DNA of 5,358 nucleotides from a virus (Duplodnaviria; Heunggongvirae; Uroviricota; Caudoviricetes): IMG/VR virus record IMGVR_UViG_3300000059_000099, positions 1-5,358 of that record, one strand, 5' to 3'. Below the pieces are notes generated by a model, which saw only the letters and a list, made by a program, of their open reading frames with translations, had not been told where the DNA came from and ran no database searches. This document shows, one piece after another, positions 1 to 5,358 of the stretch (the first letter of the stretch is position 1; every line of letters begins with the position of its first letter). The position numbers and the translations under genes were made by a program.

Positions 1-999
1 ATCGCGGAATTTTTCGAAGTAGCCGATAAATGCGCCAAGAGTTTGCGTGCGCATATGTGCCAGCAGGCGCAGGATTGCCCGACGGCGGTCAGTATCAATT
101 TCAGCTATAGGTAGCAGGTCGCCCAGAATCTCGTTGTAGCCCTTCACAACTTCAGCAGGGTCAACGGCAGCCTCAGCAGTGGCCCACGCCTCAGCGTCAG
201 CCAGATATCCGTCAAACCGGTTTACGCGGCAAATGTTCGCAGGTTTCGGCACGCTTCCGCTACGACGGCGCCATGTCGCAATAACCCAACGAATTACTAA
301 CTGAATCTCAGCCACGCTGTAACCAGCGCGGGTGGTGGTGGCAGTCAGCAGCATGACAAACGGTTTAACGTCGCGGCAGCGTGTACCGACTTTCTCGTTG
401 TAGTAGTTCAGAGCTTTTTGAGCGTCAGCGAGAATGATTTCCTCGCCCTCCCCCTTTTGGGGGTAAGGGGGATCTTTTATCTCTGTAGTACTCTCTGTTG
501 TATTCTCTGTAAGAGATTGGGTCATTTTGACCTTAGCGCATGGGTCAACTTGACCTGATGCTTGGGTCACATTGACCTCTTCGATTGGGTCAACTTGACC
601 TGATGCTTGGGTCACATTGACCTCTTCGATTGGGTCAACTTGACCTAATCGATTGGCCACAGGGAATGTTGTCTCTTCAATCTTACATAACTGGGCATAA
701 TTGATTGAATACCACTTGGTTTTATCCCAGGCATCACTGTTAAAGTTCCCAGTAAGCAACACATTCAATTTTTCCAGATTGGCCAACACGCGTTTTATTG
801 TCGACTCGCTCCAGAACGGGAATTGTTCTTGCCAGTCGGTCACACTGTTGTACACCCAGTGGCGATTTTCGAAGAAATTTTGAGACGAATTCAGCCAGTA
901 GTGGATTTGCTGTAGAACGATGGCTTCATTCAACCCTATAGTGCATGCCAACGTGGGCAGGACCTGAAGGGGGTTTTCGTTAATCAGCAAACGACTCAT
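1..999 (-). CDS. Phage replication initiation / replisome-organizer protein, N-terminal 333 codons (continues past window start); lambda O-like in architecture (origin iterons inside the gene) but not obviously in sequence
   Basis: Hand translation of the minus strand from ATG (complement of 997..999) is open to position 1: MSRLLINENPLQVLPTLACTIGLNEAIVLQQIHYWLNS... The iteron-encoded stretch reads in frame as repeated GQVDPIEEVNVTQAS. A GGAG Shine-Dalgarno sits about 8 nt upstream; the start lies 2 nt after the upstream gene's stop. The six-frame track omits it, apparently because it has no in-window stop. Confidence 0.75.
   Translation of the reverse strand, partial: MSRLLINENPLQVLPTLACTIGLNEAIVLQQIHYWLNSSQNFFENRHWVYNSVTDWQEQFPFWSESTIKRVLANLEKLNVLLTGNFNSDAWDKTKWYSINYAQLCKIEETTFPVANRLGQVDPIEEVNVTQASGQVDPIEEVNVTQASGQVDPCAKVKMTQSLTENTTESTTEIKDPPYPQKGEGEEIILADAQKALNYYNEKVGTRCRDVKPFVMLLTATTTRAGYSVAEIQLVIRWVIATWRRRSGSVPKPANICRVNRFDGYLADAEAWATAEAAVDPAEVVKGYNEILGDLLPIAEIDTDRRRAILRLLAHMRTQTLGAFIGYFEKFRD
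518..646. repeat. Iteron array (candidate replication origin) inside the replication gene: six copies of TGGGTCA-NN(N)-TTGACCT with internal dyad symmetry (GGTCA..TGACC), spaced 22-24 bp
   Basis: Direct reading: copies start at about 518, 541, 563, 587, 609 and 631, alternating the variants GGGTCAACTTGACC and GGGTCACATTGACC. A pyrimidine-rich segment and a C5TTTTG5 hairpin lie at 451-517. Confidence 0.7.
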
Positions 1000-1001
1000 A
1001 C

Positions 1002-1226
1002 TCAGATCTCCAGAGCTTCGGCTATCTGACGACAACCGGCTTCATAGTCCGCATTGCTCAGCCCTTTGTCGCGCAACTCGACCTTCCTGGATTCATACTG
1101 CTCCCACACCGAAAGCGCGGCAGCCATACGCCCATCAAAAATAGGTTGGATCTCTGCAACATGTGCCGGGCGCCCATTCAGGTGCCAGCCGTTACGCCAG
1201 GTAATGCGGTCAATATGTCTTAACAT
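1002..1226 (-). CDS. Hypothetical 74-aa phage protein between the YdaT-like gene and the replication gene
   Basis: ORF in the track (MLRHIDRITWRNGWHLNGRPAHVAEIQPIF...). On the minus strand it is preceded by GAGGAAAGACCG then ATG, the same initiation cassette used at 3794. Tightly packed with its neighbours. No family recognised. Confidence 0.55.
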   Translation of the reverse strand: MLRHIDRITWRNGWHLNGRPAHVAEIQPIFDGRMAAALSVWEQYESRKVELRDKGLSNADYEAGCRQIAEALEI

Positions 1227-1265
1227 CGGTCTTTCCTCGGTATAAGTTAAACGCTGGTCAGGCGC

Positions 1266-1742
1266 TCATGCATGGTGGCCTTGCGCAGTGCTTATCACTG
1301 CTCCTCGCGTCGCTACCAGCGCCGCTATTGCTTCGTCAATTTCCTGAATAGTTAACTCTGGCGCGAAGTGGAGATGTACAGCGTTAATCGCTTCCACCCC
1401 TTCTTTTGCCGCCAGCGTTGCCAGCAAAACGGGATCGCCCGGCGACTCCAGACGCGCCCGCCGTTCTGCGGGTAGCACTGCTTTCATCACACTGGCCAGC
1501 ACCTGAGTTTTTCGGCGCGCCGCCGTTGTCTCGCCACGTAACCAGCGAAAGATTTTCTGCCGGTTGTTGTTGATGGCTCTCCAGTCCACGTTGCCGTCCG
1601 TGTCCTCAAATTCATGTAGTCTCAACTCATCATTGCGTCCCTGACTGAACCAGGCCCGGCAGATTTCAATCGTGACGAGTTCCTGCCCTGCCCTTGCCGC
1701 CCAGGTCAAAATCTCTTTTTGTAATTCCTCTTGGTTTTCCAT
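1266..1742 (-). CDS. ydaT: YdaT-like protein (Rac prophage YdaT family; described as a CII-like regulator / putative toxin), 158 aa
   Basis: Recalled similarity to Rac YdaT: LxxAAxxGQ near the N-terminus, NNRQKIFRWLRGET, and LPAERRARL. AGGAGA Shine-Dalgarno upstream of the ATG at 1742. Sits immediately downstream of the Cro-like gene, as in Rac (ydaS-ydaT). Confidence 0.6.
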   Translation of the reverse strand: MENQEELQKEILTWAARAGQELVTIEICRAWFSQGRNDELRLHEFEDTDGNVDWRAINNNRQKIFRWLRGETTAARRKTQVLASVMKAVLPAERRARLESPGDPVLLATLAAKEGVEAINAVHLHFAPELTIQEIDEAIAALVATRGAVISTAQGHHA

Positions 1743-1801
1743 AGCGTCTCCTGTCGCTAAAAATTGATTACGCTTAATCAGATGTAATAAGCCGCCTTTT
1801 G

Positions 1802-1999
1802 CTAAGCTTTTTCATGTTTTGGAACATCGTAAAAAGTCGGGTCATATTTCAGTGCTCCATTAGTGATATGGTCGAGTCGAGCTGCTCGCTTTTCAGGAAC
1901 TGTTGCCCCCCAACGAGTAACCGCCACTTGTGATATACCCAGCACCTTGGCTGTGGCTGTCTTTGAACCAAAAAAACTAATAACCGTCTCTGTTTTCAT
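1802..1999 (-). CDS. dicC: DicC/YdaS-like Cro-type HTH regulator, 65 aa
   Basis: Translation MKTETVISFFGSKTATAKVLGISQVAVTRWGATVPEKRAARLDHITNGALKYDPTFYDV matches the DicC pattern recalled from Qin (FGSKT...VPE.RA.RL...L.YDP..Y). Strong GGAGGAAT Shine-Dalgarno before the ATG. Divergent from the DicA-like repressor. Confidence 0.7.
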   Translation of the reverse strand: MKTETVISFFGSKTATAKVLGISQVAVTRWGATVPEKRAARLDHITNGALKYDPTFYDVPKHEKA

Positions 2000-2067
2000 A
2001 ATTCCTCCGCGTAACTTTTGTTAGCAACATAAATACTAACGAAAGTTATGTCAAGTTAACTTATATT
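2000..2067. promoter_or_regulatory. Divergent immunity control region (OR analogue): two palindromic operator-like sites, TAACTTTTGTTA (2012-2023) and TAACGAAAGTTA (2037-2048), plus a leftward promoter for the Cro-like gene
   Basis: The two 12-mers are reverse-complement variants of each other and form a 13-bp inverted repeat around an 11-bp centre. On the minus strand, TTGACA (complement of 2049-2054), a 17-nt spacer and TATGTT (complement of 2026-2031) make a promoter, with one operator in its spacer. AGTTAACT palindrome at 2053-2060. Confidence 0.5.
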
Positions 2068-2481
2068 ATGAGGATGAAAAATTTGATGCTTAGCGACCGT
2101 TTATCTCAAAGACGCAAACAGCTTGGTCTAACCCAACAACAGCTTGCTGATATGGTTGGAAGATCGAGTGTGAGCGTTTTTAAATGGGAAAGCGGACAAA
2201 ATGAACCAAAGGGCCAGAACTTGTTGGCTTTGGCCAATGCACTCAAGTGTTCTGCCACATGGCTGCTTTTTGGTGACGAAGACCAGGCGCCAACTCCGGT
2301 AGACGAATTACCAACAGAGCTGGATTCACGTCAAAAAAGATTGTTAGAGTTATTTGATTCATTACCCGAGTCAGAAAAAGAAAAGCAACTAATTGAATTA
2401 GAAGATAAAGTTGAAAACTTTAATCGTTTATTTGAAGAGTTACTGGTTACCAGAAAGAAACTAACCCCCACCAAAAAATAA
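2068..2481 (+). CDS. dicA: DicA-like HTH (XRE-family) prophage repressor, 137 aa from the first ATG; alternative starts at 2074 and 2086
   Basis: Translation ...MKNLMLSDRLSQRRKQLGLTQQQLADMVGRSSVSVFKWESGQNEPKGQNLLALANALKCSATWLLFGDEDQAPTP... closely parallels the DicA sequence recalled from Qin (KNLTIGERIRYRRKNL..., SPTWILFGDEDKQPTP, LPESE, KNFNKLFEELL). No good Shine-Dalgarno before 2068, so the message may be leaderless or start at 2074/2086. Confidence 0.85.
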   Translation: MRMKNLMLSDRLSQRRKQLGLTQQQLADMVGRSSVSVFKWESGQNEPKGQNLLALANALKCSATWLLFGDEDQAPTPVDELPTELDSRQKRLLELFDSLPESEKEKQLIELEDKVENFNRLFEELLVTRKKLTPTKK

Positions 2482-2484
2482 AAT

Positions 2485-2519
2485 AAAGGCAATGTTTTCA
2501 ATGCATTGCCTTTATTTTT
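2485..2519. terminator. Rho-independent terminator after the repressor gene, probably bidirectional
   Basis: Stem AAAGGCAATG (2485-2494) pairs with CATTGCCTTT (2504-2513) around a 9-nt loop, followed by TATTTTTA. The A-rich 5' flank (AAAAAATAAAAT) gives a U-tract on the opposite strand. Confidence 0.7.
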
Positions 2520-2530
2520 ACCCCAAATAC

Positions 2531-2580
2531 TAACTTTTGTTATAAAACATCTTGCACATAAAATTACCTTTAGTTATATT
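2531..2580 (+). promoter_or_regulatory. Second operator copy (TAACTTTTGTTA, 2531-2542) next to a near-consensus sigma70 promoter firing rightward (-35 TTGCAC 2552-2557, 17-nt spacer, -10 TATATT 2575-2580): a pL/OL analogue
   Basis: The 12-mer is identical to the operator at 2012-2023. Hexamers and spacing were read directly. Placement just beyond the repressor terminator mirrors lambda OL/pL. Confidence 0.45.
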
Positions 2581-2914
2581 CATTCCATCAACAACGCTTA
2601 CCCAGCGGCAGTTGTTCAGAAACACGTTCTGACAGCCGGAAAGACGGCACCAAATTTTGCGCGTCGGCGCCAACACGGTGACAGAGGGAAAGACTTCACC
2701 GGCATATGGCACATGTGTCGAAGCGGTCTGGATGGAAGCGGAGCCTTAACGCGTTGTCTCCATAGCAGGTAGCCGGAATGTGCAAGCCACAGCCAGGTAT
2801 GAGCGATTGATTCACCATCAAGGCGATACGGTGTGACCACCAGGGAAGAGTCCTGGCTACAACACGAGAGCGCACTTCATCGACTCAACTTTGAGCTTTG
2901 TCGTTAAATTTTGA

Positions 2915-3055
2915 AATGGCGGAGTGCGCTCCCGGTTGTGGTGAACAGGTGTTTAACGGGAACTCCCTGCCCGTTACCCGGTTCGATTCCGGGCGCCCAT
3001 CATCAATTTGCTGTGTTTAGTCTTTGCCCAGTCCGCACGATGGGCCATTTTTTCA
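2915..3055 (+). ncRNA. Candidate small structured RNA (speculative): two adjacent hairpins, one a tRNA-like T-arm, closed by an intrinsic-terminator-like hairpin
   Basis: Hairpin AACGGG-(9 nt)-CCCGTT at 2955-2975. Hairpin CCCGG-TTCGATT-CCGGG at 2977-2993, where the loop matches the tRNA T-loop pattern (GGTTCGATTCC). Downstream stem GCCCA / TGGGC with T6 at 3026-3053. Only a weak promoter upstream (TCGACT, 18 nt, TAAATT, about 2881-2910). No ORF support. Confidence 0.2.
3025..3054 (+). terminator. Candidate intrinsic terminator inside the non-coding stretch
   Basis: GCCCA (3026-3030) pairs with TGGGC (3041-3045) around a 10-nt loop, followed by CCATTTTTTC (T6 at 3048-3053). The stem is short but GC-rich. 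Confidence 0.35.
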
Positions 3056-3146
3056 CACAGCCAGGTTTTATCGCTGTGCCTGAGTCCCCAACAGGAGAGG
3101 CCAAACCCGCAGCGTGACACCAGGGAAAGACCGGAGGAAGTACCAC

Positions 3147-3214
3147 GCCTGACCAGCGTTGACCATGAGCCTGACCAGCTCAAAACAGGAAAGACCAGCC
3201 CGGGCCTGACCAGC
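3147..3214. repeat. Short direct-repeat cluster: GCCTGACCAGC three times (3147, 3169, 3204) with extra GACCA(G/T) copies, phased about 11 bp apart
   Basis: Direct reading of gcctgaccagc-gttgaccatga-gcctgaccagc-tcaaaacaggaaagaccagcc-cgg-gcctgaccagc. GACCA cores at about 3151, 3162, 3173, 3194 and 3208. Confidence 0.6.
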
Positions 3215-3334
3215 CCTGTACGGTCGTAATGGAAACATAACGACGCCGGAAACGTAACCGGCACCCTTTAGATAGCAAAAGACCCGCACAAGGCGGGCCA
3301 GTTACCCCGAACGGCGACCAAACCATTCGGATTT

Positions 3335-3358
3335 ATCACAAGTGACCAAACTTGTGAT
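3335..3358. other. Perfect 9-bp inverted repeat ATCACAAGT-GACCAA-ACTTGTGAT (operator-like palindrome or RNA hairpin), directly upstream of a degenerate gene-start cassette
   Basis: Positions 3335-3343 pair perfectly with 3350-3358. No U-tract follows, so it is not a canonical terminator. Confidence 0.5.
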
Positions 3359-3442
3359 GAGGAAAGACCAACGACACTGACGCTATGGAAGCTGATCAAT
3401 ATTCGCTGATCGGCTCTGAGTATACATTACCAAGGAGTCGCT

Positions 3443-3763
3443 ATGGAAGCGCGCACCATCCCAGTAACACTCTTTATTCATTATGCAACTTCAACTTTCA
3501 GCCACGAAAAGCTGCTTGTTGCGACGGTTGATATGTCAAAAAATTTTCCAGACAGGTACATCCTTCTGGAAAGCCGCGAAATTGAAATTACCGTCAACCA
3601 GCCCCAGCCAATCGACATCATCGGTTTACAGGTCGAGCAGCTGCATGAGCAAAAACAGAAAACAGCCGCCGACGCCCAACAGCGTATTGCTGCTATCGAT
3701 GACGAAATCCAGCAGTTACTTTGCATCGAATACACGCCAGATACCGATGAAATCCCCTACTAA
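3443..3763 (+). CDS. Hypothetical 106-aa acidic protein, first gene after the non-coding stretch
   Basis: ORF in the track (MEARTIPVTLFIHYATSTFSHEKLLVATVDMSKNFPDRYILLESREIEITVNQ...). Strong AAGGAG Shine-Dalgarno 5-6 nt before the ATG; ends 30 nt before the next gene on the same strand. No family recognised. Confidence 0.6.
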   Translation: MEARTIPVTLFIHYATSTFSHEKLLVATVDMSKNFPDRYILLESREIEITVNQPQPIDIIGLQVEQLHEQKQKTAADAQQRIAAIDDEIQQLLCIEYTPDTDEIPY

Positions 3764-3793
3764 AGACCACTGACCTGTAATGAGGAAAGACCA

Positions 3794-5358
3794 ATGACCA
3801 TTTTTAACGGCTTGTTAGAAGCGAAAAAAGGCGCGCTCAAAAACGGTGCGATCCCGGCGCTGGCCATCGCCATCGACGCCCCTAACAAAAAAGTTGCCGA
3901 GAACATCATCATCGGCAAATTGTGGGAAGCCTACCCTGACCACGGCGACAACTATTTCAAACCTAAAATCTGGGAAGATGCCCCGGGCCAACCGCGCCCT
4001 GGCGTCGGTGAGTTTGATGAGACGTTTGCCACAGAACACAGTTTTGATGGCGAAAAATGGGTAGTTAACACCCCCGCTGATTCAGATAGCGGTTCAGCAG
4101 ATATCGCACAGGTTAACGACCTGATGAAACTGCCTGCTCGTGAACGCTTCGCCGCCGTCCTGCTGTTCAGCCACGACGCCAACGAAGTCGACAGTGAATT
4201 GCTTGCGCAGACGCGTGAATACTTGGAGATGCTCGACAACAGTGATACTAACAGTGAGGATGAGGTTGACGCGTTTAACCGCATCGTCCTCGATGCCATG
4301 GTAGCGTGTAAGCCCATTGAGTACATGCATATTGCTGGATTGAATAATCTGGTACATGCAATTTTGGCAAGTTGCGATACCCAGGAACAAAACCCGACCA
4401 GTTGGACTATCTCCAAATTTATAAAAAAATGGGTAGAGAATCCCGGTAAACGCGATGAAATGCTGCCGGAGGTAAAACCACAAACAGCATCCGCACGTCC
4501 TTACCAACAGACTCACGCCACACTGGATCGTGAAATTGCCTGCGCCCTGTTACCTGTTGCCCCGGAAAAAATCACCCCCAGCATCCTGAAAGCGGCAGAC
4601 GAAATAATCAGTCAGGACAGGGAAGATTTTAAACGCTGGTCAATGGCCTTGCGCACAACGGATCAGATCCTTGCCTATGACCGCGCATCAGTATTCGGTG
4701 TTATTCAGAGCGCCCCCGCAAAAGACACGTACCACTTCCCACAATCCCTGCGCAGTCACATCGACAACTGGCTGCAAGCTAACGGGCAGCGTGATGCAAA
4801 TGCTGTTGAAGAGAAGCCAAAGGAAGCAGCACCAAAGGATGATGTAAAAGTCACCAACCACGGCGGCGGACGATTCTCAATTGATGGGATGATGTCAGAA
4901 ACACCCTCAAATCAGGGCGAAAAAAGCGAAGCAGCAAATGCTGGAGAACGTAGTTTGCAGCAGTTGCGTGAGCAGTTTGTCACGCCTCGCCATGTGTATG
5001 ACGTACCTGAAAATAACGCCGTATCACAGAGGGAACCTGCAGCTATTACCCCGGCAGAAGAGACTCCTCCACAAGAACAACTTAGCGAGCAGGTAAAGGA
5101 TCTGGTGCAGAACGTTGACGCGCTGGTTGAGCGGATCCATACCGAAGAGTACAAGCGGCAGAATGCAATCTCAGCTATCGAAACGGAGTTAAAGGACTCC
5201 GACGACACGGATAATCTGGCATTGTGGAAGAACATATTCAAAACCGATGAGCGCTTCACCAGTGCTTTCTCTCAGAATGGCGGCGGCACATCCATCAACG
5301 GCACTTATATAGCGATGAAAGCGACTCGCGAATTTGGGCCGTTTGGTATTGGCTGGGG
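3794..5358 (+). CDS. Large hypothetical protein, N-terminal 521 codons (continues past window end); C-terminal part in the window ends with ...INGTYIAMKATREFGPFGIGW, loosely reminiscent of the Rad52/Sak-type annealing-protein core (uncertain)
   Basis: Hand translation from ATG 3794 (MTIFNGLLEAKKGALKNGAIPALAIAIDAPNKK...) runs 521 codons to the window edge without a stop. GAGGAAAGACCA precedes the ATG. Absent from the track, apparently for lack of an in-window stop. The antisense track ORFs 3952..4416, 4094..4516 and 4912..5259 lie wholly inside it. Confidence 0.7.
   Translation, partial: MTIFNGLLEAKKGALKNGAIPALAIAIDAPNKKVAENIIIGKLWEAYPDHGDNYFKPKIWEDAPGQPRPGVGEFDETFATEHSFDGEKWVVNTPADSDSGSADIAQVNDLMKLPARERFAAVLLFSHDANEVDSELLAQTREYLEMLDNSDTNSEDEVDAFNRIVLDAMVACKPIEYMHIAGLNNLVHAILASCDTQEQNPTSWTISKFIKKWVENPGKRDEMLPEVKPQTASARPYQQTHATLDREIACALLPVAPEKITPSILKAADEIISQDREDFKRWSMALRTTDQILAYDRASVFGVIQSAPAKDTYHFPQSLRSHIDNWLQANGQRDANAVEEKPKEAAPKDDVKVTNHGGGRFSIDGMMSETPSNQGEKSEAANAGERSLQQLREQFVTPRHVYDVPENNAVSQREPAAITPAEETPPQEQLSEQVKDLVQNVDALVERIHTEEYKRQNAISAIETELKDSDDTDNLALWKNIFKTDERFTSAFSQNGGGTSINGTYIAMKATREFGPFGIGW

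Follow-up and report, generated by a model that had tools for sequence, protein, structure and literature searches.

The DNA analysed here is a stretch of 5,358 nucleotides, called the window throughout, which corresponds to positions 1 to 5,358 of the IMG/VR virus record IMGVR_UViG_3300000059_000099 (Duplodnaviria; Heunggongvirae; Uroviricota; Caudoviricetes). Our subject is a large open reading frame (ORF) on the plus strand, which fills the last part of the window and runs off its end. It begins with a module akin to the N-terminal region of the exonuclease RecE and passes, just before the window closes, into a predicted annealing domain of the Rad52 type. The features of the ORF are given below, together with the reading, family match or AlphaFold2 (AF2) confidence value (pLDDT, predicted local distance difference test) on which each is based.

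3782..3796, plus strand: Shine-Dalgarno sequence GAGGA (3782-3786) and start codon ATG (3794-3796), separated by a spacer of 7 nt; read from the sequence
3794..5358, plus strand: large ORF, residues 1-521 of a 738-residue protein; reading frame, PHROG 2489 and 99.7%-identical genomes
3794..4078, plus strand: compact alpha/beta domain (YdfE_N), residues 1-95; AF2 pLDDT >90
4121..4801, plus strand: all-helical domain, residues ~110-336; AF2 pLDDT 73-97, NF007259, PHROG 607 and 2082, BLASTP
4484-4801, plus strand: segment most clearly held in common with the RecE N-terminal region, residues 231-336; corresponds to RecE ~253-361
4802..5071, plus strand: acidic linker, largely predicted to be disordered, residues ~337-426; low pLDDT
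5072..5197, plus strand: single long helix leading into the annealase domain, residues 427-468; AF2 pLDDT 81-92
5204..5358, plus strand: start of the predicted Rad52-type annealing domain, residues 471-521, containing INGTYIAMKATREFGPFGIGW; stand-alone homologs begin exactly here

The large ORF is a genuine gene and not a chance reading frame. Starting at ATG 3794, 521 codons follow one another without a stop up to position 5358, where the window ends. ATG 3794 is the earliest possible start, because the nearest in-frame stop upstream lies at 3761-3763. The initial annotation, made from the sequence of the window, had described a large acidic ORF of at least 521 amino acids (aa), and this description is borne out. 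The frame is open over 3794-5358, the product has an isoelectric point (pI) of 4.80 (84 D+E versus 54 K+R; net charge of ~-30), and the full ORF in near-identical genomes encodes 738 aa. Since the window ends at residue 521, residues 522-738 are taken from these E. coli genomes, which are 99.7% identical over 3400-5358 and in which the gene spans 2217 nt (L001:9395-11611). PHROG 2489 matches residues 1-521 with an E-value of 7e-252 and covers the whole 738-aa protein. Neither the window ORF nor the full protein matches a curated family above threshold in Pfam or NCBIfam, and a phmmer search of the full protein against PDB sequences returned noise only. RefSeq names the 738-aa protein either 'hypothetical protein' or 'phage-associated endonuclease'.

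By megablast, the region is present in 451 of 5426 complete E. coli genomes, chromosomal every time; the phage collection held no match to it. Intact orthologs with 49-99% identity occur in Salmonella and on many viral contigs. One ortholog of 738 aa, P0071, is 97% identical to the window ORF across all 521 residues, and its predicted model serves below as the structure of the annealase domain.

The predicted Rad52-type domain

The last ~20 residues encoded in the window, INGTYIAMKATREFGPFGIGW, had been tentatively linked to the core of Rad52/Sak-like annealing proteins. This link is upheld when the full protein is considered, where the segment corresponds to the first conserved strand and helix of a predicted Rad52-fold domain that continues past the window. 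With residues 471-738 as query, many stand-alone proteins of 240-280 aa were retrieved, one of which (P0052) carries a precomputed match to PF04098 (Rad52_Rad22). PHROG 7838, a family of 242 aa, matches residues 472-721. Across 38 aligned sequences, the motif DGEAPKKSLTDAxKKALSxLGFSADIF is strongly conserved.

The initial annotation had proposed to check the ORF with Pfam profiles and by structure prediction with Foldseek. The profiles gave a divided answer: the 738-aa protein falls below the PF04098 threshold, whereas 32 of the 38 homologs, each scanned singly, match this family at E <= 0.1 (best E 8.3e-6). When the family profile was compared with the PDB, human RAD52 ranked first, co-linear over RAD52 residues 57-159. 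Here, INGTYIAMKATREFGPFGIGW of the window is placed on RAD52 residues 66-84, IEGHRVINLANEMFGYNGW, and K613 and K614 are aligned to K152 and R153, two residues of the single-stranded DNA (ssDNA) groove of RAD52. Among 52 sequences, all have K614 and 50 have K613; W478, T484, T489, T499, A510, T511, G515, G518 and G522 are invariant in this set.

The AF2 model of P0071 has a pLDDT of 85-96 over residues 500-738, with a topology of a helix, a long beta-hairpin sheet and a further helix. Searched against the PDB with Foldseek, the model gave a single match at E <= 0.001, to 8bjm_B of the undecamer of human RAD52 (E 1.1e-4, probability 1.00, 172 columns), so that the structural check came out in favour of the Rad52 link. 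Erf, RecT/Red-beta and Sak3 (DUF1071) gave no Pfam match in the 738-aa protein, and none of them is among the 25 most frequent Pfam families over the 38 homologs. From the predicted fold and the conserved groove residues, we conclude that residues ~471-738 constitute a divergent annealase domain of the Rad52/Sak branch.

The RecE-like N-terminal module

For the first ~480 residues, no family had been recognised in the initial annotation. Of these, residues 1-340 can now be placed in the YdfE_N / RecE N-terminal family. A precomputed match to PF27430 (YdfE_N) is present on P0071 and on all fused orthologs, and curators have evidently noticed this N-terminal domain, because the Pfam family YdfE_N exists. 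By BLASTP, K-12 YdfE is 34% identical to ORF residues 18-87, and residues 243-308 align to K-12 RecE 263-332, with nothing in the RecE nuclease domain. The NCBIfam model NF007259 (exoVIII) matches residues 231-336 only (model positions 260-370; E 9e-13; 47.3 bits against a cut-off of 1269).

A profile built from residues 1-340 reaches YdfE 3-256 with an E-value of 1e-43. With all sequences included, it also reaches K-12 RecE 6-361 at E 1e-35, a value that is partly circular. Because the alignment held RecE-like N-termini, sequences with any BLASTP match to RecE were removed, and the profile still matches RecE 176-352 at E 7.8e-7. The first ~95 residues are tied to RecE solely via bridging sequences. 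On these sequence comparisons, YdfE and the N-terminal, non-catalytic part of RecE are homologs of residues 1-340.

The first AF2 model of the whole protein was poor at its N-terminus (pLDDT ~30-60). A second model, of window residues 1-470 with a deeper alignment, reached a mean pLDDT of 79. Between the helical domain and the long helix, pLDDT drops below 50 over residues 366-427 in the model of residues 1-470 or over residues 337-429 in the full-length model. Residues 337-470 have a pI of 4.67.

The statement in the initial annotation that the protein does not look like RecE is therefore right for one half and wrong for the other. The catalytic part is not RecE-like because it contains no nuclease domain. 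In its non-catalytic half, the protein does resemble RecE, as the family placement of residues 1-340 shows. A search of the 738-aa protein for a nuclease gave no Pfam nuclease domain, no similarity to RecE 564-866 and no nuclease fold.

These results bear on the reading that the ORF encodes a RecE-type exonuclease (exodeoxyribonuclease VIII), which its database names suggest. PHROGs 2489 and 7838 are both labelled 'exonuclease', NCBI uses the names 'exonuclease family protein' and 'phage-associated endonuclease', and residues 1-340 are truly homologous to the N-terminal region of RecE. However, this homology is confined to the part of RecE that is non-catalytic and does not extend to RecE 564-866; the protein has no Pfam nuclease domain and scores 47 bits where the exoVIII model demands 1269; and what PHROG 7838 labels 'exonuclease' is the predicted Rad52-fold domain. 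With a Rad52-type domain in the nuclease's place, the database calls are probably wrong, and we regard an exonuclease as extremely improbable. An annotation error would then be spreading, in which PHROGs 2489 and 7838, named 'exonuclease', are Rad52-type annealases. This label has already entered many deposited phage genomes, for example those of the Vibrio phage D-series and of Pseudomonas phage vB_PaeP-F1Pa.

The two parts of the protein also occur in other combinations. An exhaustive representative search found 2565 proteins at E <= 1e-3. Among the 150 matches listed, most are stand-alone proteins of the C-terminal type (230-300 aa), and ~28 are fused clusters of 667-814 aa. One fused protein, P0198 (775 aa), combines residues 1-518 of K-12 RecE, at 49% identity, with the annealase domain at 68%, and another, P0194 (814 aa), matches both N-terminal types. 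The RecE N-terminal module is therefore naturally joined either to a PD-(D/E)XK nuclease, as in RecE, or to a Rad52-type annealase. The junction of the modules is the linker immediately before the catalytic domain.

A remnant of the same gene type is found in E. coli K-12, where ydfE (L009:5079-5999) is an N-terminal portion cut by IS2E next to intQ. Qin therefore once had either a RecE-like or an annealase-fusion gene in that slot.

Operon, prophage setting and the Gp157 partner

Upstream of the large ORF, the window contains the following genes.

1266-1742, minus strand: YdaT-like gene
1802-1999, minus strand: P22_Cro/YdaS-like gene
2068-2481, plus strand: HTH_3 repressor gene
3443..3763, plus strand: acidic ORF of 106 aa, pI 4.48, the operon's first gene; PHROG 2479, E 3e-51

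This layout matches the immunity and early region of the Rac and Qin cryptic prophages. The large ORF had been assigned to an accessory position; the slot it occupies is instead that of the recombination genes in an early-left operon of the Rac/Qin type, filled in Rac by racC-recE-recT. The operon comprises six genes in conserved order: the 106-aa ORF, the fusion protein, Gp157, a 60-aa ORF, xis and int. Downstream of the fusion gene in E. coli lie Sipho_Gp157, the 60-aa ORF, a DUF4224 excisionase-like gene, an integrase and a tRNA-Leu/Cys/Gly cluster adjoining pgsA-uvrC, and the ATG of Gp157 overlaps the stop codon of the 738-aa gene (ATGA). At the locus of the Salmonella ortholog P0186, represented by ~2000 indexed blocks of the collection, the order is 107-aa ORF, 81-aa ORF, fusion, Gp157, 60-aa ORF, DUF4224 and integrase.

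The initial annotation had joined the 106-aa acidic protein and the large ORF into a two-gene unit. The 106-aa ORF is real, acidic and conserved, and both Salmonella and phage BUCT708 have a counterpart of 107 aa at the corresponding site. However, it is the first of six operon genes, and the tight partner of the fusion gene is Gp157 on the downstream side. The 106-aa ORF takes the position of racC in Rac; BLASTP detected no similarity to RacC, and no match was found in Pfam, NCBIfam or PADLOC.

The pairing with Gp157 was assessed in 80 IMG/VR loci retrieved with the C-terminal profile, of which 78 hold a fused and 2 a stand-alone protein. A Gp157-type ORF lies directly downstream in 77 of the 80, mostly with a 4-bp overlap, and two of the three exceptions reach the contig end. 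With K-12 RecT and the RecE nuclease domain as probes, phmmer gave no match within 5 kb at any of these loci. Gp157 is also directly downstream in E. coli, Salmonella, phage BUCT708, a Yersinia prophage and two metagenomic phages; the stand-alone homologs of the Yersinia prophage and the metagenomic phages lie in early regions containing N/cIII or NinB/NinG/SSB. In phages of Firmicutes, the place beside erf and sak4 is taken alternatively by sipho_gp157, Mu-gam-like, DUF2483 or DUF1351 genes, for which the authors suggested analogous functions (PMC8093625). Gp157 itself belongs to PF05565 as its only Pfam family, and a profile search against the PDB gave coiled-coil noise only. A look for a RecT, Bet or Erf neighbour downstream had been proposed as a check; no such gene is annotated at the E. 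coli locus, which we ascribe to the 738-aa protein being itself the annealase.

The same loci speak to the possibility that the ORF is a decaying remnant of a cryptic prophage, without present function. K-12 ydfE, cut short by IS2, is a remnant of just this kind. Insertions of ISEc52 (IS3 family) occur in the region of several genomes, and split ORFs are seen in some viral loci (L015, L046). Against this stand intact ORFs of 654-881 aa, with 49-99% identity, in ~76 of the 80 viral loci. The near-identical E. coli genome and the Salmonella ortholog that was examined likewise have an intact ORF, and 80% or more of the region is present, with an identity of at least 95%, in 449 complete E. coli genomes. 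The functional residues are invariant, and the gene is present in the deposited phage genome BUCT708. Because the ORFs are intact and conserved across genera and the Gp157 overlap is preserved, we consider a dead remnant very unlikely. In several human E. coli isolates (hits H10-H15), the match to window positions 3400-5358 is split in two by ISEc52, inside or beside the gene pair.

Some further observations concern the surroundings of the gene pair. The stretch 2482-3442 (~960 bp), between the repressor and the 106-aa ORF, is gene-free in the annotation of ~448 E. coli genomes at 95-99.8% identity; the window, this stretch included, has no Rfam match. Minus-strand terminator-like hairpins are in excess at 3191-3299, with 8 found against 2.2 expected, and CRISPR spacers in two other E. 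coli strains match ~3121-3164 (95.5%) and ~3342-3374 (100%). The repressor of the window (2068-2481) has 137 aa and consists of the helix-turn-helix (HTH) part only, without Peptidase_S24, like RacR and DicA. In a Salmonella relative of the same prophage type, a 241-aa HTH + S24 repressor (LexA-like, self-cleaving) is found at that position (L005:3994-4719). Because short HTH-only and HTH + S24 repressors occupy the same slot, immunity modules are exchanged between otherwise syntenic prophages.

The 60-aa ORF after Gp157 (PHROG 2482; L001:12177-12359) is kept in E. coli, Salmonella and BUCT708, and a 60-aa ORF at the equivalent position in Yersinia (L010:5343-5525) is Pfam DUF1317. It may thus be a third conserved member of the module. 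The genome of Stenotrophomonas phage vB_SmeS_BUCT708 (OM816834.1, L007), deposited as infecting Stenotrophomonas maltophilia, has an immunity and early region like that of the window type, with Cro, YdaT-like, repressor, 107-aa ORF, fusion, Gp157, 60-aa ORF, DUF4224 and integrase genes, and its annealase domain has 69% protein identity to the enterobacterial gene. Either this is a mosaic that crosses orders, which would be striking, or the assigned host is questionable.

Proposed role and comparison with known systems

Taken together, the likely product of the ORF is the recombinase of a lambdoid prophage of the Rac/Qin type, a protein in which a RecE-like N-terminus is joined to a Rad52-type annealing domain, with no nuclease and with Gp157 encoded downstream. 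In this model, the C-terminal domain would form Rad52-like oligomeric rings, bind ssDNA and anneal complementary strands without ATP, as RAD52, Sak, RecT or Bet do. The phage would use annealing to circularise its genome, for recombination linked to replication and for mosaic exchange, with the annealase replacing RecT or Bet. Gp157 would be an obligate accessory factor, perhaps acting on DNA ends, and resection may come from host nucleases or from an unrecognised activity. The N-terminal module would be a portable, non-catalytic adaptor held in common with RecE. Since the same module is carried by the exonuclease half in RecE and by the annealase half in the 738-aa protein, it probably brings the machinery to a common target, which may be DNA ends, a host factor or a partner protein.

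A Rad52 fold may also serve other ends, such as replication initiation or restart, RNA- or ssDNA-binding regulation, or phage-host and phage-phage conflict, in which the protein would act as a decoy or a trigger for recombinase-sensing defence. Annealases are reportedly needed for replication in some phages (PMC5499656), and phage annealases are described as targets of defence systems (PMC8093625, PMC11846896 and PMC13581612). The large acidic N-terminal module, to which no function is assigned, would leave room for such a use. However, the gene stands where Rac has its recombination genes, the lysines of the ssDNA groove are conserved, and the gene is paired with Gp157, a recurrent neighbour of other annealases. 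A defence association, which the initial annotation had also considered, finds no match in PADLOC-DB 2.0 for the fusion protein, Gp157, the 60-aa ORF or the 106-aa ORF. Moreover, such roles mostly extend annealing rather than replace it. We therefore judge a use other than homologous recombination to be unlikely.

Several points weigh against the proposed annealase recombinase. The 738-aa protein itself scores 13.8 bits against PF04098, for which the gathering threshold is 20.3 (E 0.055), and the profile gives only a weak match to RAD52 in the PDB (E 1.6). Normalised to RAD52, the TM-score of the structural match is modest (0.45), and the model behind it was predicted for an ortholog with 97% identity. 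The final 217 residues of the protein are encoded beyond the window and are taken from the 99.7%-identical genomes. Structure searches with the N-terminal module returned no informative neighbour, and the adaptor role proposed for this module is pure inference. The search for nucleases in the 80 viral loci covered the RecE type only and not the lambda-Exo/YqaJ type. Finally, the description of Gp157 as 'Mu Gam-like' end protection (PHROG 253) was not supported: hhalign gave a probability of 0.45% against Mu Gam, albeit with a shallow profile of 6 sequences. Taken with PHROGs 2489 and 7838, the PHROG function labels over L001:9395-12174 look unreliable.

A more far-reaching possibility, which we put forward tentatively and hold to be somewhat less than even, is that the RecE N-terminal region is a portable adaptor that can sit on either half of a recombinase. 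The RecE-N-Rad52 annealase and Gp157 would then form a previously unrecognised two-component system, in which Gp157 replaces the exonuclease or Gam, and the N-terminal module targets DNA ends or a host factor. The ~560-residue N-terminal region of RecE is still described as of 'unknown function', yet it enhances linear-linear recombineering (PMC11611040). If true, the adaptor reading could explain why full-length RecE is needed in linear-linear recombination; the natural fusion of the module to an annealase instead of a nuclease fits a catalysis-independent role in targeting or scaffolding. The 738-aa protein thus offers a comparative handle on the function of the RecE N-terminal region. A 102-residue 'miniRecE' (E121-T222) was reported in 2026 to boost knock-in in mammalian cells as well as full-length EcRecE (PMC12825301). 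If its numbering is that of full-length RecE, the fragment would fall within the N-terminal module that RecE and the present ORF have in common; it is not used as evidence here.

The module of annealase and Gp157, with no cognate exonuclease apparent, is widespread: it occurs in ~8% of complete E. coli genomes, O25b:H4 strains among them, and in thousands of Salmonella assemblies. Recombinases of relaxed fidelity drive prophage mosaicism in pathogens (PMC3945230). The pair is a candidate recombineering tool and a route to the function of the Gp157 family. Our literature searches turned up no description of a RecE/YdfE N-terminal module joined to a Rad52 domain, of its constant association with Gp157 or of a missing cognate exonuclease, and nothing specific on the function of YdfE or of Gp157.

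Among known systems, the Rad52/Rad22 family (human RAD52's N-terminal domain, Sak of the lactococcal phage ul36, PF04098) has the same predicted fold as the C-terminal domain described here, a co-linear annealing core and lysines at the positions of K152/R153. Like ul36 Sak, the 738-aa protein is phage-borne. It differs from this family in being too divergent for the Pfam threshold, whereas most of its relatives match PF04098. In addition, it carries an N-terminal extension of 470 residues of the RecE/YdfE type and a three-helix C-terminal tail of ~100 residues, and it is paired with Gp157 (77 of 80 loci).

RecE (exonuclease VIII of Rac) occupies the same operon position in the same type of prophage, and its N-terminal ~340-360 residues are homologous and co-linear. 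In contrast, the C-terminal domain is a predicted Rad52-type annealase here and a PD-(D/E)XK 5'-3' exonuclease in RecE (564-866), and the next gene is Gp157 here and recT in Rac. YdfE of the Qin prophage of K-12 (PF27430) is likewise homologous, with a common position downstream of the dicA immunity region and adjoining intQ; ydfE is a pseudogene cut by IS2, whereas the gene in the window is intact as far as the window reaches.

The lambda Red (Exo/Bet/Gam) and P22 Erf/Abc systems are, like the operon described here, early-left recombination modules of temperate enterobacterial phages, and both are built around an annealase of the Rad52 superfamily (PMC2896510, PMC3945230). They differ from it in that the annealase here is predicted to belong to the Rad52/Sak branch, the partner is Gp157, and a gene for a cognate exonuclease is not apparent. 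As a class of function, the phage Rad52-type annealase is known; what is new is the architecture of the protein and its partner.

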